Shown: positions 57,143 through 64,000 of the stretch, piece after piece | Position numbering within the stretch: position 1 is the first letter of the stretch | Layout: each line of letters opens with the position of its first letter | Origin: Candidatus Omnitrophota bacterium | GTDB taxonomy: Bacteria > Omnitrophota > Gorgyraeia > JAZDFF01 | DNA length: 64,000 nucleotides | Direction of reading: 5' to 3' | Assembly: GCA_043808095.1 (NCBI GenBank) | Contig: JAZDFF010000011.1 | Coordinates: 48,030 to 112,029 of the forward strand | Notes under the pieces: model-generated | The model's input: only the letters and a program-made list of their open reading frames with translations | Database searches by the model: none | Told to the model about the DNA's origin: nothing | Translations under genes and position numbers: made by a program

Positions 57143-57811
57143 CTATTGAAGTTTTTCTGGATGATGCCTTATAACTTCTGCTTGAACCATGTAGATCACG
57201 TCTTCTGCGATATTTGTAGTGTGATCGCATATCCTTTCTAAAAACCGAGCTATCAATAACAACTGAACTGCTCTCGGAGCCGAAGAGCCGTCCTTTACCA
57301 TATAATCCTCAACAAGCTCTTTCTGTATCATATTTCTTAGCTGATCGGCTTCGGAATCAGATAATAAGACTTTTTTAGCTAAAGCGATATCTCCTTTCAC
57401 AAATGAATCTATGGACATCTTTACCATGTTTTGAGCGACAGCTGCTAGCTTAGGTATATCAATCAATGGTTTTAATAGGGGCTTATCCACTATCTCTAAA
57501 GTACGCTGAGCTATATCCACCGCAATATCAGCTATCCTTTCGAGTTCGGCATTTATCTTCATACCAGTTGTGATAAAACGAAGGTCTTTGGCCATTGGCT
57601 GGTGTCGTGCTATCAAATCTATACATTTCTCATCTATCGCCAATTCCAATTTATCAATATTGGTATCGTTGTCTATAACGCCCTTAGCCATTATCTTATC
57701 TCGATTTTTGAGTGCTTCAATAGATTTATAGATTGCCTCTTCTGCAAAGGCTCCCATCTTCAAAATATCTTTATTCAGTTCTTTTAACTCTTGGTCAAAA
57801 TGTCTTTCCAT
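57143..57811 (-). CDS. phoU: phosphate signalling complex protein PhoU
   Basis: 222 aa with two PhoU repeats. Confidence 0.9.
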   Translation of the reverse strand: MERHFDQELKELNKDILKMGAFAEEAIYKSIEALKNRDKIMAKGVIDNDTNIDKLELAIDEKCIDLIARHQPMAKDLRFITTGMKINAELERIADIAVDIAQRTLEIVDKPLLKPLIDIPKLAAVAQNMVKMSIDSFVKGDIALAKKVLLSDSEADQLRNMIQKELVEDYMVKDGSSAPRAVQLLLIARFLERICDHTTNIAEDVIYMVQAEVIRHHPEKLQ

Positions 57812-57903
57812 CTTAAACCTCCTGATTTTTACTCCGTAAAAATCATCCCGAAGTCTGCGAACGCAATTTCGAGGAAATTGCGGAGCGCTTAGACAAGGGA
57901 GAT

Positions 57904-58605
57904 TTATCCATACCTTCCAGTAATGTAATCTTCTGTACGTTTATCGTGCGGCGCTGTAAATAATTCTTGGGTCTTACCAAACTCTATTAACTCACCTAAG
58001 AGCATAAAGCCCGTATCATCAGAGACACGCGCTGCCTGTTGCATATTATGAGTAACTATTATTATAGTATAATTTGCTTTAAGTTCACGCATTAATTCCT
58101 CAATCCTTGCTGTAGCCTGCGGATCCAAAGCAGAGCATGACTCATCCATTAACAATACATCGGGCTTAACCGCAATAAGCCTGGCAATACACAATCTTTG
58201 CCTTTGCTCTAACGATAACCGTAAGGCAAACTCATTTAACCTGTCTTTTAAGTCATCCCATAAGAGGACACTTTTTAAACTTTTCTCGACAACCTCATCT
58301 AGGGCATCGCGTTTTACATTATCACCGTGGATCTTTTCCCCGAAAACAATGTTTTCATAAATCGAAAGTGGAAATGGGTTTGGCCGCTGGAATACCATTC
58401 CTACCTTCTTCCTCAATGTTACTAAATCTGTGTGGGAATTAAGAATATTTTTACCGTCAATCAAGACTTCGCCTTCAGTACGTACGCCTTCGATTAAATC
58501 ATTCATGCGGTTAAAAACCCTAAGCAAGGTAGACTTGCCGCATCCGGAAGGCCCGATGATAGCAGTAATCCTATTCGCTTCGAAGGCCGAGTTTATATCC
58601 TTCAA
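57904..58605 (-). CDS. pstB: phosphate ABC transporter ATPase PstB1 (degenerate signature motif LSLEQ)
   Basis: Walker A (GPSGCGKST), Q-loop (FQRPNPFP), Walker B (LLMDE) and H-loop (VTHNMQQ) are intact. The signature is LSLEQRQR instead of LSGGQQQR. Confidence 0.9.
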
Positions 58606-58724
58606 AGCATGAAAACTACCGTACCAGAAATTTAGGTTTTTAGTTATTATCTTTGCCAGTGGAGTCTCCTTTTTTCTGTCGTACTCCCTCCCCGTAGGGG
58701 AGAGCGAAGCCTCCCCGAAGGGGA

Positions 58725-59471
58725 TTAACCAAACTTTCCTCTAATATAACCATCCGTGCGTTTGTCCTTCGGAGCAGTAAAAATTATATCCGTTTTATCT
58801 ATTTCGATAAGTTCACCGCTTAAGAAAAAGGCTGTTCTATCTCCTACTCTTGCCGCCTGTTTTACATTATTAGTCACCAAAACGATAGTATATTTTTCTT
58901 TTATCTTGACCATGGCGTCTTCTACTTTGGCAGTAGAGATAGGGTCTAGTCCAGAGCAGGGTTCGTCAAACAAAATTACCTCCGGCTCAACCGCTAATGT
59001 CCTTGCAATGCAAAGACGTTGCTGCTGGCCGCCAGATAATTCGAAAGCTGATTCATCTAACCTATCCTTTACTTCTTCCCAGAGATATCCTTGTTTTAAC
59101 GCTTCTTCTACCTTCTCGGTGAGTCTCTTTTTATCTCTTACGCCATTCATCCTTAACCCGTAAGCCACATTATCAAAAATAGATAACGGAAGCGGCAAGG
59201 GCAGCGCAAATACCATGCCTACTTTACGGCGCAATGATTCTATATCCAGCCCACGAATATCTTTCCTCTCTAATTCTACCGCTCCGGATATCTTATAGCC
59301 TATAGTAAGATCATTCAGGCGATTTAGCGTTCTTAAGAAAGTCGTCTTTCCGCTATTTGAAGGCCCAATGATGCTTAAGATCTCGTTAGAATTGATCTCA
59401 ATATTAATATGCTTTACGGCATGCACGGCGCCAAACCATATGTTTAAATCGTGGGTTTCAAATTTTACCAT
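58725..59471 (-). CDS. pstB: phosphate ABC transporter ATPase PstB2 (degenerate Q-loop and H-loop)
   Basis: It has GPSNSGKTT, an intact LSGGQQQR signature and ILFDE. The Q-loop is FALPLP and the H-loop is VTNNVKQ. Confidence 0.85.
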
Positions 59472-60313
59472 TTCTTTTTCTTTCTAAACCTATAGCGTAT
59501 GATTATAGCGACTAAATTCATGAATAAAACGAGGGCCAAAAGCACAAAAGCGGTCCCGTATCTTATTTTTTCATCTACATTAGGCACCTGGGTTGAAATA
59601 ACATAGAGATGATACGGTAATGCCATTGCCTGATCAAATATGGACTTTGGAAGCCGCGGTAAATAAAATGCCGCTACGGTAAAAAGAATCGGCGCTGTTT
59701 CTCCTGCCGCCCTTCCTAAGCCCAGGATAGTCCCAGTTAATATTCCCGGTATGGCGTTAGGTAAAACAATATACCTGATAGTCTGCCACTTACTTGCCCC
59801 CAAAGATAAACTTACTTCCCGAAATGTTTGCGGAACACTTTCCAGGGCCTCGCGCGAAGTAGTTATGATAATAGGAAGTATCATAATACCCAAGGTAAGA
59901 GAACCTGAAAGAATCGATGCGCCAAATTTTAAGAATACTACAAAAAGCGCTAAGCCAAAAAGTCCGTAAACTACCGAAGGCACGCCTGCAAGATTAACGA
60001 TTGCTAATTTAATCAACCTATTAAGCAAGTTATCTTTTGAATACTCGCTTAGATATATTGCAGCCAGAAGGCCTATGGGTAAAGCAAATATAATCGCGCC
60101 TAAAACTAAATATATTGTTCCTACAATCGCGGGAAAGATTCCGCCAGAGCGCATCCCCTGACGAGGAATATCTGTAAGAAACTGCCAATTTATCGCCGGC
60201 AGGCCCTTCTGAATTATAATTACAATAATGATGCCTACTGGAACCACTATTAAGAGGGTTGCCAAGAATAGAAAGAAAAATGCGATATTTTGTGTTCTAT
60301 GTGGATTCCTCAT
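59465..60313 (-). CDS. pstA: phosphate ABC transporter permease PstA
   Basis: 282 aa with an EAA-loop permease fold. Confidence 0.9.
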   Translation of the reverse strand: MRNPHRTQNIAFFFLFLATLLIVVPVGIIIVIIIQKGLPAINWQFLTDIPRQGMRSGGIFPAIVGTIYLVLGAIIFALPIGLLAAIYLSEYSKDNLLNRLIKLAIVNLAGVPSVVYGLFGLALFVVFLKFGASILSGSLTLGIMILPIIITTSREALESVPQTFREVSLSLGASKWQTIRYIVLPNAIPGILTGTILGLGRAAGETAPILFTVAAFYLPRLPKSIFDQAMALPYHLYVISTQVPNVDEKIRYGTAFVLLALVLFMNLVAIIIRYRFRKKKKW

Positions 60314-61173
60314 TGTTTCTTATGCAAAAATAAATCTGCTGTTACGTTGATCGCAAAACTGATAACAAATAAAACTATACCTATAGCAAATAAAGCAAAA
60401 TAGTGCTCACTACCCACCACGGCCTCTCCCATTTCAGCGGCAATGGTAGCAGTCAAGGTCCTTACCGGCACTAAAATACTATTCGGGATAACCGCGGCAT
60501 TTCCGGTAATCATCATTACCGCCATTGTTTCACCTATTACCCTTCCGATTCCCAGCATTACTGCAGCAAGTATCCCGCTTGAAGCAGACGGTAACATTAC
60601 TCGCCATATCGTCTGCCAATGCGTTGCCCCTAACGCAAGTGCGCCTTCTTTATAATTTTTGGGAACAGAATAAAGCGCGTCTTCTGCAATTGAAACTATC
60701 GTTGGCATCGCCATAAAAGCCAGCATGATCGAACCTGATAAAGCAGTTAACCCCGTAGGCAGATGAAAAACTGTTTTTGCTAACGGCACGAGCGTAACCA
60801 TTCCGATAAAACCCAGTACTACACTCGGGATAGCAGCCAATAACTCAATACCTGCCTTAAGGATTTCTTTGATCTTTAGAGGAGCTATTTCGGCAATATA
60901 AATCGCGCAACCCACACCTATGGGGACTGAAATAATTGCCGCGCCCAAAGTAACAAGTAGTGAACCGAGAATTAAAGGAAGAATTCCTAACTGCGCTGGT
61001 TCCGAAATCGGATACCAGCTCTTCCCAAAAAGAAATTTAAAAGGGCTCACAGTCTTAAATACCGCAAGCCCTTCTTTTAAGAGAAACAAGAAAATCAGCG
61101 CTACAAAGAATATTGACGCTATGCCGCAAATCAATATAAGCTTTTCAATAATAAACTCTTTAAGTTTACGCAT
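60310..61173 (-). CDS. pstC: phosphate ABC transporter permease PstC
   Basis: 287 aa. Confidence 0.9.
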   Translation of the reverse strand: MRKLKEFIIEKLILICGIASIFFVALIFLFLLKEGLAVFKTVSPFKFLFGKSWYPISEPAQLGILPLILGSLLVTLGAAIISVPIGVGCAIYIAEIAPLKIKEILKAGIELLAAIPSVVLGFIGMVTLVPLAKTVFHLPTGLTALSGSIMLAFMAMPTIVSIAEDALYSVPKNYKEGALALGATHWQTIWRVMLPSASSGILAAVMLGIGRVIGETMAVMMITGNAAVIPNSILVPVRTLTATIAAEMGEAVVGSEHYFALFAIGIVLFVISFAINVTADLFLHKKQ

Positions 61174-61268
61174 TGAGCCCCTAATTTTTCTTGTCGTGAC
61201 GAAATCACGCCGAGCGTGTCAAAATTATCTGGGATAATTTTGACACAGTTTGCGAGGCGGGGTATATT

Positions 61269-62123
61269 TTATTTACTGATCGGTACAAAATCGGTTGCCA
61301 AAACAATATCCTGACCTTCTTTAGAAAGTATAAATTCCACAAATTCCTTTACCAAACCTTGTGGCGCACCGTTTGTGTATATAAATAGCGGCCTGGAGAT
61401 TGGGTATTTTCCGTTTACGACATTCTCTATTGTTGGTGATTCATATTCTAACTTTTCATCTTTGGCAACAGAAACCGGTTTTTGTTTTGCCGAAATATAT
61501 CCCATTCCGTAATATCCTACTGCCGCAGAATTACCCGCCACTTCATCTGCGATAGCCTGTGAAGACGAGAGCATTAATGCGCTTGGAGCAAACTCTTCCT
61601 TGCTGTTAGGATCATTCTTTCTTAATACGTGCTCCTTAAAATAAACATGCGTTCCGGAGTTGACTTCTCTAGATAATATCACGATCTTCTCGTCCTTGCC
61701 ACCGACTTCTTTCCAGTTAGAAATTCTTCCGGTAAAAATATCAGCGAGCTGAGTTAAGGTAATCTTGCTAATAGGATTACCCGGGCTTACTACCACCGCA
61801 AGACCGTCTAACGCAACTTTTATTTCGTTTGGGTTTATGCCTTTCTGCTTGGCAATAGCAATCTCCTTTTCTTTGATATTTCTTGAACTCATAGCAATAT
61901 CGCAGCTGCCACTTATGAGACTGGAAAGCCCTGTACCGGAACCGCCGCCTGTGACTGCAACGAAATCAGTGGGATTCTTCTCCATATATTTCTCAGCCCA
62001 GGCCTGGCCTAGATTGACCATTGTATCCGAACCTTTGACCTGTATTGAGTTTTTATCTTTCGCCGCAAATGCGGAAGTGATAAATATGAACGCTACCAGA
62101 ACAAGTAACCATTTTTTAAACAT
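61269..62123 (-). CDS. pstS: phosphate-binding protein PstS
   Basis: A signal peptide precedes the PstS family fold (GSDTM...SRE.NSGT). Confidence 0.85.
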   Translation of the reverse strand: MFKKWLLVLVAFIFITSAFAAKDKNSIQVKGSDTMVNLGQAWAEKYMEKNPTDFVAVTGGGSGTGLSSLISGSCDIAMSSRNIKEKEIAIAKQKGINPNEIKVALDGLAVVVSPGNPISKITLTQLADIFTGRISNWKEVGGKDEKIVILSREVNSGTHVYFKEHVLRKNDPNSKEEFAPSALMLSSSQAIADEVAGNSAAVGYYGMGYISAKQKPVSVAKDEKLEYESPTIENVVNGKYPISRPLFIYTNGAPQGLVKEFVEFILSKEGQDIVLATDFVPISK

Positions 62124-62246: not shown

Positions 62247-62903
62247 TTAAAACGCTATTTTTAGCTTCGTACCTAATACATTAGTATCTACCCACTTCCC
62301 TGAGCTCTTGGTACTCTGCAACATATAATAAATTTCTGCTTTTAGATTCTTAGTTAAATTCATACCAAGCCCGGAAGAAAATCTGTTTTGGTTAAGTTCG
62401 CTAATCGTACTGAAACCAATGAAAATTTCATCCGCAAGATACGGCTGAATCTCCATCTTGGTAAACTTCCAAGGTAATTTTACTGTAGCCTTATTACGAT
62501 ACCTCCAAGAATCATCCTGATAGTCAAAATGGCGGTATTCCATGCGGTTACGATCCTCAAACTTAAATCCTTTTAAGTCCCAAAGTAAGGTTGCGGTTAC
62601 ATAGGGCTCGTTTTCCAGTTTAAATTCCCCTTTCTTTAATTCATAAACATGGCGGTACCCGCCTCCGATATTCAACCATTTTTGCAGATTATAGAAGAAC
62701 CCCACATCGTAGTGATGATAAAAAAATTCATGAGCATTATCTCCACAGCGAAATTCTTCCTCAAATGCTATTTTCGCATTCTTATTGACTTTGAATTCCT
62801 CTACATCTGTATTCCATACTTGAAAATCTCCGTCTTCGTAGGCATAAACTTTTGCTGTTAAAAGTAATACCAATCCGATTATTACAAAAATCACCTTCTT
62901 CAT
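62247..62903 (-). CDS. outer-membrane beta-barrel protein, DUF2490-like (putative phosphate-regulated porin)
   Basis: A signal peptide is followed by alternating amphipathic strands rich in Y/W/F. The C-terminus ends in Phe (KLKIAF). Confidence 0.5.
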   Translation of the reverse strand: MKKVIFVIIGLVLLLTAKVYAYEDGDFQVWNTDVEEFKVNKNAKIAFEEEFRCGDNAHEFFYHHYDVGFFYNLQKWLNIGGGYRHVYELKKGEFKLENEPYVTATLLWDLKGFKFEDRNRMEYRHFDYQDDSWRYRNKATVKLPWKFTKMEIQPYLADEIFIGFSTISELNQNRFSSGLGMNLTKNLKAEIYYMLQSTKSSGKWVDTNVLGTKLKIAF

Positions 62904-63088: not shown

Positions 63089-64000
63089 TTACTTAGGAAG
63101 GATAAACCAAAACTTTGAACCAAATCCTTCGGTGCTTTCTACGCCGACGCTACCGCCGTGTAATTCGACGATATGCTTGACAATAGAAAGGCCGAGGCCA
63201 GTTCCGCCGAGTTCGCGCGAGCGCGCTTTGTCGACGCGATAAAAACGTTCAAATATACGAGATAGGTCTTTTATAGGAATACCAATCCCGGAATCTTCGA
63301 CTATAATCTTTATGCCACTATCGGAGTCTTGATTATAAATCTTTATAAAGCCATTGTCCTTATTAAACTTGATAGCATTATCGATTAAATTGGTAACAAC
63401 CTGTTCTATTTTTTCTTTATCTGCTTTAACTGATAAATCTTTAGGCAAATCATTCTGAATTTTGATTAGTTTTTTCTTCAATTGCGACCTAAAGCCGGCT
63501 AAAACCTCATCGGTCAGCTCTTTTGAATTTATTTGCTGTTTTGATAGTTTTATCTCTTTAGATTCAATATGCGACAGCGTAAGCAAATCGTTAATTAAAC
63601 TATGAAGCCGCTCGGCATGATCCTGAATTATCTTTAAAAAATGACGGCTATTCTCTTTATCTTCCGAGGCACCTTCCAATAAAGTTTCCACGAATCCTTT
63701 TATGGATGTAAGCGGCGTTTTTAACTCATGAGAGACATTAGCTACGAAATCACTACGCATGGTCTCTAAATTTCGTATCTGGGTTATATCATGAATAACC
63801 ACTAAACATCCTGTTACAGCATTGTTTTCAAAAATAGGTGTAGCATTAACCTCAAATATCCTGCGCATAGGATAAACCAGCGATAACTCGCTCGATATTG
63901 ACTTTCCCTTCTTCAAAACACTATTTATGATTTCCGAAATGTCGTTATTGCGTATCGACTCAAGAAAAACTTTGCCTTCTACGTCTTTCTTGGTAATGCC
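63089..64000 (-). CDS. phoR: phosphate regulon sensor histidine kinase PhoR (C-terminal part; gene continues beyond the window end)
   Basis: A PAS segment is followed by HisKA (SHELKTPLTSI) and HATPase (GGTGLGLSIVKHIV). The reading frame stays open through 64000. Confidence 0.85.
   Translation of the reverse strand, partial: GITKKDVEGKVFLESIRNNDISEIINSVLKKGKSISSELSLVYPMRRIFEVNATPIFENNAVTGCLVVIHDITQIRNLETMRSDFVANVSHELKTPLTSIKGFVETLLEGASEDKENSRHFLKIIQDHAERLHSLINDLLTLSHIESKEIKLSKQQINSKELTDEVLAGFRSQLKKKLIKIQNDLPKDLSVKADKEKIEQVVTNLIDNAIKFNKDNGFIKIYNQDSDSGIKIIVEDSGIGIPIKDLSRIFERFYRVDKARSRELGGTGLGLSIVKHIVELHGGSVGVESTEGFGSKFWFILPK

Follow-up and report, generated by a model that had tools for sequence, protein, structure and literature searches.

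Can a phosphate importer of the Pst type run on two different ATPases, each of which lacks what the other one has kept? Pst is taught as a transporter with a homodimer of the ATPase PstB, a picture borne out by its recently solved structure, and work on degenerate ATP sites has dealt almost wholly with exporters and with eukaryotic proteins from the ATP-binding cassette (ABC) family. The question is raised by a stretch of 64,000 nucleotides (nt) from a Candidatus Omnitrophota bacterium (contig JAZDFF010000011.1, positions 48,030 to 112,029), which we call the window. On its minus strand, at 57143-62123, lie six genes: pstS, pstC, pstA, two genes for PstB-like ATPases and phoU. Judged by the Pfam matches of their neighbors, the two nucleotide-binding domain (NBD) genes are thus embedded in a Pst phosphate importer operon. 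We suggest that their products, PstB2 and PstB1, quite probably form an obligate heterodimer with a single catalytic ATP site, and that they do not act as PstB homodimers.

Two ATPases with complementary defects

Both pstB genes are on the minus strand, which corrects the order in which they had initially been read: pstB2 (58725..59471, ATG start, 248 amino acids) is the upstream gene and pstB1 (57904..58659 with the stop codon included, CTG start, 251 amino acids) the downstream one. The former was assigned by the TIGR00972 and PF00005 profiles and by alignment to Escherichia coli PstB, the latter by TIGR00972 and the N-termini of its homologues. The best database matches of both are 100% identical entries from a Candidatus Omnitrophota metagenome-assembled genome (MAG). 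No third PstB was found within the 64-kb window.

Motif positions were set by alignment to E. coli PstB, whose structure is solved (9k3x, 9k3y, 9k3s; PMC12976172); the alignment is free of gaps around every motif, and the substituted residues truly occupy the Q-loop, H-loop and signature positions. PstB1 has an A-loop FWYG (58618..58629), which provides aromatic stacking on adenine, a Walker A identical to that of E. coli (GPSGCGKST, 58528-58554), a canonical Q-loop (VFQRP, 58381-58395; VFQKP in E. coli), the Walker B LLMDES (58138-58155; LLLDEP in E. coli) and a canonical H-loop (VTHNM, 58042..58056, as in E. coli). Its signature is degenerate: LSLEQRQR (58195..58218) stands in place of LSGGQQQR, with Leu150 and Glu151 replacing G156 and G157 of E. 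coli. The motifs of PstB1 had been quoted correctly in the original prediction, which was made from the letters of the window.

PstB2 presents the opposite picture. Its signature is the canonical LSGGQQQR (59016..59039), identical to that of E. coli, and its Walker B ILFDEP (58959..58976) keeps Asp169 and the catalytic Glu170, directly followed by the D-loop SGLD (58944-58955). The Q-loop reads VFALP (59199..59213), with Ala89 in place of Gln (Q98 of E. coli), and the H-loop VTNNV (58863..58877), with Asn201 in place of His (H210 of E. coli). All of this agrees with what had been claimed for PstB2; a qualification concerns its Walker A, which had been listed as kept. The sequence GPSNSGKTT (59340..59366) keeps Lys42 and Thr43 and fits the general form GxxxxGK[ST]; it departs from the ABC-typical GxxGxGK[ST] by Asn39 at the fourth position, where Gly is usual.

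The start of pstB1 needed revision. It had been placed at a TTG, giving a gene at 57904-58605, and we place it at the CTG at 58659-58657 for four reasons: the TIGR00972 alignment begins at residue 5 of the resulting 251-residue product, a Shine-Dalgarno sequence AAGGAG lies 6 nt upstream of the CTG, the N-termini MAKI(I/V)TKNLN of the 120 closest PstB1 homologues coincide with this position, and the NCBI product on the same contig also has 251 amino acids. The reading frame is open as far as 58722. The open reading frame (ORF) of 233 amino acids initiated at the mechanically called TTG lacks strand 1 and the A-loop Tyr of FWYG, which is encoded upstream of it.

PstB1 is 60% and PstB2 47% identical to E. 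coli PstB, and the two share 51% with each other. With 372.8 bits over profile positions 3-248 of 248, PstB1 exceeds the curated TIGR00972 cut-off of 343.2 bits and is a PstB equivalog; PstB2 scores 340.6 bits and misses the cut-off by 2.6 bits, although among families it still matches TIGR00972 best by far. Both are far above the cut-off of 25 bits for PF00005 (ABC_tran), with 98.2 bits for PstB1 and 93.8 for PstB2. Because PstB2-type proteins lie just under the TIGR00972 cut-off and are named generically (most are "phosphate ABC transporter ATP-binding protein" at NCBI, without "PstB"), automated annotation hides the type. An AlphaFold2 model of PstB2 built with 35 homologues has a mean predicted local distance difference test (pLDDT) of 92.4 and superposes on E. 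coli PstB (9k3x_C) with a template modelling (TM) score of 0.95 and 1.2 Å; it also matches further NBD structures. By this model PstB2 is a well-formed NBD and not a wreck.

Conservation and spread of the pattern

The complementary pattern is present in all 240 closest homologues, 120 for each protein. Among those of PstB2 (81-100% identity, Omnitrophota), ALPL together with VTNN occurs in 120 of 120, GP[SA][NS]SGKT likewise in 120 (119 with the Asn variant GP[SA]NSGKT) and LSGGQQQR in all but two. The closest homologues of PstB1 carry LSLEQ[KR]QR in 119 cases and LSLEEKQR in one, with canonical catalytic motifs in all. The window PstB1 itself has Ser after the catalytic Glu (LLMDES), where 119 of its 120 closest homologues have DEP.

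A further 120 PstB2 homologues of the Planctomycetota type show the same motif behavior. VTNN and the DE of Walker B are thus present in 240 of 240 PstB2-type homologues, all found by similarity and independently of the pattern scan described below. In 21 of the 120 Planctomycetota-type proteins, DEH replaces DEP after Walker B. The PstB2-type query from a Pirellulales MAG matched MAG and metagenome proteins only, with no cultured Planctomycetota carrier among them. A search of 1.84 billion cluster representatives also recovered distant clusters of both types, one of them a high-G+C NCBI assembly with the arrangement pstS-C-A-[VFATP, VTNNL, LSGGQ]-[LPLEQ, VTHNM].

Other PstB-like proteins (P0296, P0311, P0271, P0348, P0388, P0342) have non-consensus combinations of another kind, for example LSIGQ with a Q-loop LAQKP or LLQKP, LSLGQ, LSPGQ with VFPTP, or LTRGQQQL with LLLEES and STNSV. 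Their sequences hint at further, separate classes of asymmetric PstB.

For a broader survey, one genome per species (185,579 species) was scanned with the back-translated pattern DEPxx[GA]LDP-(21 aa)-VTNN, for which about 0.01 chance matches were estimated. The scan yielded at least 119 loci, and all locus counts that follow are among the matches listed. A PstB2-type NBD is present in 117 of the 119. At the Q-loop position 104 of 109 subunits have Ala and 5 have Ser, the signature reads xSGGQ in 115 of 115, and 91 of 103 have an aromatic residue (F, Y, W or H) in the A-loop. The fourth position of its Walker A, readable in 107, is Asn in 62, Gly in 28, Arg in 11, Ser in 3, Lys in 2 and Ala in 1.

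An NBD gene follows directly downstream in 103 of the 117 loci, and 11 of the other 14 are cut off by the edge of the locus. In all 97 readable pairs the partner's signature is degenerate and never LSGGQ; Glu occupies its fourth position 82 times, Asp 12 times and Tyr 3 times. The catalytic motifs of the partner are intact: Q-loop Gln in 97 of 97, H-loop His in 92 of 92 readable, GPSGCGK in 92 of 97 and A-loop Tyr in 100 of 100. Gene order is pstS-pstC-pstA-B2-B1-phoU wherever it is visible in the 8-kb block (34 complete loci and many truncated ones). The lack of variation among the 120 closest homologues of either protein, and the recurrence in 97 of 97 readable pairs from other genomes, put the pattern far beyond chance.

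The carriers are distributed widely. Of the at least 119 loci, 27 belong to Planctomycetota, 18 to Omnitrophota, 17 to Acidobacteriota including Aminicenantes, 9 to Ignavibacteriota or Bacteroidota, 7 to Elusimicrobiota, 6 to Verrucomicrobiota or Lentisphaerota, 3 each to Spirochaetota and Desantisbacteria, 2 to WOR-3, 5 to other candidate phyla and 1 to Gemmatimonadota; 20 have an unclassified or doubtful label. The one remaining locus is from Sorangium cellulosum So0157-2, a cultured bacterium and the sole isolate among these matches. The PstB2-type clan thus spans at least 12 phyla. A 2.6-kb contig labelled Candidatus Micrarchaeia archaeon (L081) carries a typical bacterial-type pair; the contig is probably a contaminant from binning and not truly archaeal.

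Two features of the pairs vary together. Which residue PstB2 has at the fourth Walker A position depends on the signature of the partner: Asn is found mostly beside xLEQ, Gly beside LPLDQ and Arg beside xGEQ. Further, the D-loop of PstB2 is SGLD in 99 of 104 cases, that of PstB1 SALD or STLD. These sequence patterns could reflect co-variation at the interface or shared ancestry.

Conservation of one predicted composite site and probable origin of the pair

In a head-to-tail NBD dimer, each ATP site is composed of the catalytic motifs of one subunit and the signature of the other. We therefore grouped motif columns by predicted site and summed their entropy across 82 complete pairs. The predicted consensus site (A-loop, Walker A, Q-loop, Walker B and H-loop of PstB1 plus the signature of PstB2) amounts to 6.6 bits, the predicted degenerate site to 26.3 bits. 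The signature of PstB2 is also more conserved than that of PstB1. The difference of 6.6 versus 26.3 bits points to selection that freezes exactly one composite site.

An unrooted neighbor-joining tree of 212 thinned sequences, 68 canonical PstB among them, places the PstB2 type in one clan in 76 of 100 bootstraps. The PstB1 type forms one clan in 54 of 100, with one misclassified representative set aside. Since each type forms one clan, the pair looks like one old invention that spread, not like the outcome of repeated decay.

The proposed heterodimer and its alternatives

By the geometry of ABC NBDs, a homodimer of either subunit would hold two defective sites. Because the signature of PstB1 and the catalytic motifs of PstB2 are each defective, only the mixed dimer would have a complete site. 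The two NBDs are non-identical and their non-consensus residues map to the same composite site, both in the alignment and in 97 of 97 pairs, as is seen in systems with one consensus and one degenerate site. The original prediction had described exactly such a complementary degeneration, and it is now supported by the readable pairs, the fixed gene order and the entropy.

We propose the following model. The consensus site would be assembled from the A-loop, Walker A, Q-loop, Walker B and H-loop of PstB1 and the LSGGQ of PstB2; ATP would be bound and hydrolysed there and drive the alternating-access cycle of PstC and PstA that has been described for E. coli. The degenerate site would consist of the Asn-variant Walker A, the Ala Q-loop and the Asn H-loop of PstB2 together with the LSLEQ of PstB1. 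ATPase activity drops severely in characterised NBDs when either the H-loop His or the Q-loop Gln is missing; because both residues are lost here, the degenerate site is presumed not to hydrolyse ATP. Nucleotide would probably still be bound at this site, which keeps the Lys and Ser/Thr of Walker A, the Asp and Glu of Walker B and an aromatic residue in the A-loop. The γ-phosphate of ATP would be repelled by the acidic residue, Glu or Asp, that is conserved in place of the second signature Gly. The net result would be one ATP hydrolysed per cycle.

The arrangement of the genes is consistent with a fixed stoichiometry. In close relatives the stop codon of B2 overlaps the ATG of B1 as TAATG, and among the scan matches listed the aligned ends of B2 and B1 are at most 30 nt apart in 79 of 101 pairs. 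Overlap and short spacing fit coupled, equimolar 1:1 synthesis of the two subunits.

The best-surviving alternative is that the paralogues do not pair: PstB1 homodimers would power transport, and PstB2 homodimers, binding ATP without hydrolysing it, would serve for example PhoU/PhoR signalling. Some observations suit such a division. In Enterococcus faecalis the roles of pstB1 and pstB2 are non-equivalent and non-overlapping, and excess PstB2 can replace PstB1 (PMC12096839); contact between PhoU and PstB is cited as known in PMC12976172; and at three Elusimicrobiota loci the PstB2-type gene has no partner next to it. We nevertheless consider this unlikely. In a PstB1 homodimer both sites would carry Glu or Asp where the second signature Gly belongs, and in CFTR such a change prevents ATP-driven closure of the dimer. 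What is frozen is PstB2's signature and PstB1's set of catalytic motifs, which is sensible only if they meet in one site. Moreover, the E. faecalis paralogues are both canonical, hence no model for the pair found here.

Another explanation keeps the heterodimer and makes both of its sites active, the PstB2 site using its Walker B Glu and substitutes for the missing residues (the H-loop Asn, and the partner's Glu as a base or metal ligand). It would account for why PstB2 conserves its catalytic Glu, the Lys of Walker A and an aromatic residue in the A-loop, and why the replacements are specific (Asn, Ala, Glu/Asp) and not random. General ABC enzymology, in which loss of the H-loop His or Q-loop Gln severely cuts ATPase activity, speaks against two active sites, as do the acidic residue that blocks site closure in CFTR and the motif columns of the degenerate site, about 4 times more variable than those of the consensus one. 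We hold this for quite improbable. Finally, that PstB2 is a decaying, functionless duplicate and the complementarity a coincidence of drift is hardly credible and was rejected: its score just below the TIGR00972 cut-off would suit decay, but the ORF is intact, identity is 81-100% in more than 120 clusters whose replacement residues do not vary, the clan reaches into at least 12 phyla, the structure model is of high confidence (pLDDT 92) and the signature is better conserved than that of its partner.

Several points weigh against the heterodimer with one catalytic site. Firstly, heterodimerisation is inferred from sequence logic only, and PstB2-PstB1 modelled with AlphaFold2 as one chain through an in-frame read-through of 21 amino acids, without an alignment, gave an uninformative model with a pLDDT of 32 and a predicted TM score of 0.20. 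Secondly, PstB2 keeps its catalytic Glu, unlike many degenerate sites of exporters, so that residual or unconventional activity is possible. Thirdly, the scan pattern imposed the His-to-Asn change and the frame of Walker B and D-loop, whose invariance there is by construction, and the survey is biased to the His-to-Asn type; the motif columns were also included in the tree alignment. Fourthly, in the window itself PstB1 has DES in place of DEP, and its weak CTG start and the loss of the stop/start overlap to a 65-nt insertion are awkward for a 1:1 requirement. Lastly, in three Elusimicrobiota/Endomicrobiellum loci (L032:684-1427, L034:954-1694, L120:6191-6943) a PstB2-type gene follows pstA with no adjacent PstB1 or phoU, so either the two genes are separable after all or these operons are in decay.

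In one of these three loci, L120, an unrelated ORF of 390 amino acids follows the PstB2-type gene; the related genomes L114 and L022 carry the pair. Operon decay in endosymbionts may explain the unpaired genes; alternatively, the partner gene may be located elsewhere.

Comparison with known systems

With PstSCAB of E. coli (9k3x, 9k3y, 9k3s; PMC12976172) the window operon shares the pstSCAB-phoU type and the NBD fold. In E. coli, PstA and PstC each receive one NBD by means of coupling helices (PMC12976172), and the window importer would share this. The difference lies in the ATPases: two identical PstB with two consensus sites in E. coli, two paralogues with one consensus composite site here.

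Tandem pstB genes as such are not new. In Firmicutes, pstB1/pstB2 of E. faecalis (PMC12096839) and pstBA/pstBB of Bacillus subtilis are adjacent paralogues in a pst-phoU operon and functionally non-equivalent, which resembles our case. The E. faecalis proteins, however, have canonical motifs in both copies, without complementary degeneration (PMC12096839). The window pair does not belong to this Firmicute type, since its PstB2 is devoid of the H-loop His and Q-loop Gln and its PstB1 of both signature glycines. According to its own statement, the E. faecalis study of 2025 had no earlier comparison of tandem pstB paralogues to draw on (PMC12096839). As E. faecalis is the only genetically studied tandem pstB pair that we found, and both of its copies are canonical, the claim that the window pair departs from the textbook picture of Pst holds. 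No description of a complementary Pst pair was found in the literature searched, whose coverage leaves most subscription journals outside.

The same logic is known from heterodimeric exporters (TM287/288, BmrCD, TmrAB, PatAB, EfrCD, TAP1/2 and CFTR; PMC7756269), in which degenerate sites are frequent according to a review, and in which the catalytic defects of one NBD and the altered signature of the other likewise meet in one site, so that one consensus site is left. Those are proteins of the type IV fold with NBDs fused to their transmembrane domains, whereas here free NBD subunits serve a type I importer. The usual change in exporters is of the catalytic Glu to Asp, and the degenerate site can grip ATP tightly (TM287/288). 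In the present pair the catalytic Glu persists, the Q-loop Gln and H-loop His have gone and the second signature Gly has given way to an acidic residue.

This acidic residue has a counterpart in human disease. The CFTR substitutions G551D and G551E (PMC4178940) place Asp or Glu at the second Gly of LSGGQ, as do 94 of 97 PstB1-type proteins among the matches listed. In CFTR they block ATP-driven NBD dimerisation at the affected site by electrostatic repulsion of the γ-phosphate, and Ser or Lys do not have this effect (PMC4178940). The CFTR changes are pathogenic and hit the catalytically competent site; in PstB1 the acidic residue is the conserved wild-type state, in a site presumed to be catalytically dead already.

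Among bacterial importers, RbsA and NupO of B. subtilis (PMC11466899) are ATPases with one of two ATP sites degenerate by sequence. They belong to another importer class, their NBDs are fused and the Walker A Lys is lost, while here the subunits are separate and the Lys is kept. That one active site can suffice in a type I importer is indicated by HisP2MQJ of the histidine permease, as reviewed in PMC3971661.

Taken together, the principle of an asymmetric NBD heterodimer is known, and its conserved, phylum-spanning Pst form appears to be undescribed. The same appears to apply to a site in which the catalytic Glu is kept, Gln and His are missing and the signature carries an acidic residue. Judged by its persisting motif residues and by how specific the replacements are, the degenerate site is not simply eroded. 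By analogy with G551D/E, an acidic residue at this position makes a permanently asymmetric, non-closing or regulatory site more likely than the ATP glue of exporters of the TM287/288 type; such a site may stay open, or close empty or on ADP with the carboxylate where the γ-phosphate would be.

One detailed version of the site can be imagined, possible but in our view rather doubtful, in which it is neither a mere dead copy of an ATP site nor a glue site like that of exporters: the carboxylate at the second signature Gly fills or repels the position of the γ-phosphate, and the site closes without ATP, empty or with ADP/Pi on the P-loop. If this were true, one ATP per phosphate imported would be hard-wired, and a site sensing cytosolic ADP/Pi could feed back on uptake or on PhoU signalling. 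A degenerate site that works in this way would be mechanistically new for a type I importer, and widespread among phyla that are limited in energy and mostly uncultured.

The heterodimer itself, if real, would be a case from nature in which to ask if one ATP per cycle drives a type I importer, and would give signature substitutions of the CFTR G551D/E type a wild-type context. It might also represent an adaptation of phosphate uptake to low-energy lifestyles.

The operon and its surroundings

The remaining genes of the operon are as follows. First in the conserved order is pstS (61269..62123), which encodes a periplasmic phosphate-binding protein of 284 amino acids (Pfam PBP_like_2, 2.4e-47). 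Two permease genes follow, pstC-like (60310..61173, 287 amino acids; BPD_transp_1, 1e-19, and operon position) and pstA-like (59465..60313, 282 amino acids; BPD_transp_1, 1.7e-23). The end of pstA overlaps the ATG of pstB2 in the sequence ATGGTAA. The last gene is phoU (57143..57811, 222 amino acids; Pfam PhoU, 6.4e-44), located after B1 as in the conserved architecture. All are on the minus strand.

Between pstB2 and pstB1 the window has a G+C-rich spacer of 65 nt (58660..58724, minus strand), absent from close relatives. It holds two near-identical 14-mers, CCCCTTCGGGGAGG and CCCCTACGGGGAGG, and AAGGAG. The idea that the spacer is a functional structured RNA or a repeat element was dropped: its predicted fold is not significant (z = -1.4), and the 14-mer, with two copies there, has one weak match elsewhere in the window. 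A different insertion, of 54 nt, occupies the same pstB2/pstB1 junction in locus L065.

Some loci of the survey differ in their complement of pst genes. In some Planctomycetota and Lentisphaerae (L036:245-5991, L060:2867-7823, L066) a second pst operon with a single canonical PstB lies directly upstream of the heterodimer-type operon. A Methylomonas MAG (L102:1104-1844) has a single PstB that is canonical except for an H-loop Asn (VTNNM), and no second NBD gene was detected in that locus.

Upstream of pstS in the window, on the same strand, are genes for a DUF2490 protein with a signal-peptide-like N-terminus and for a HisKA/HATPase_c histidine kinase (62250-62903 and 63092-63916); the kinase is possibly PhoR-like. 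Downstream of phoU lie ApbE and kdpA/kdpB.

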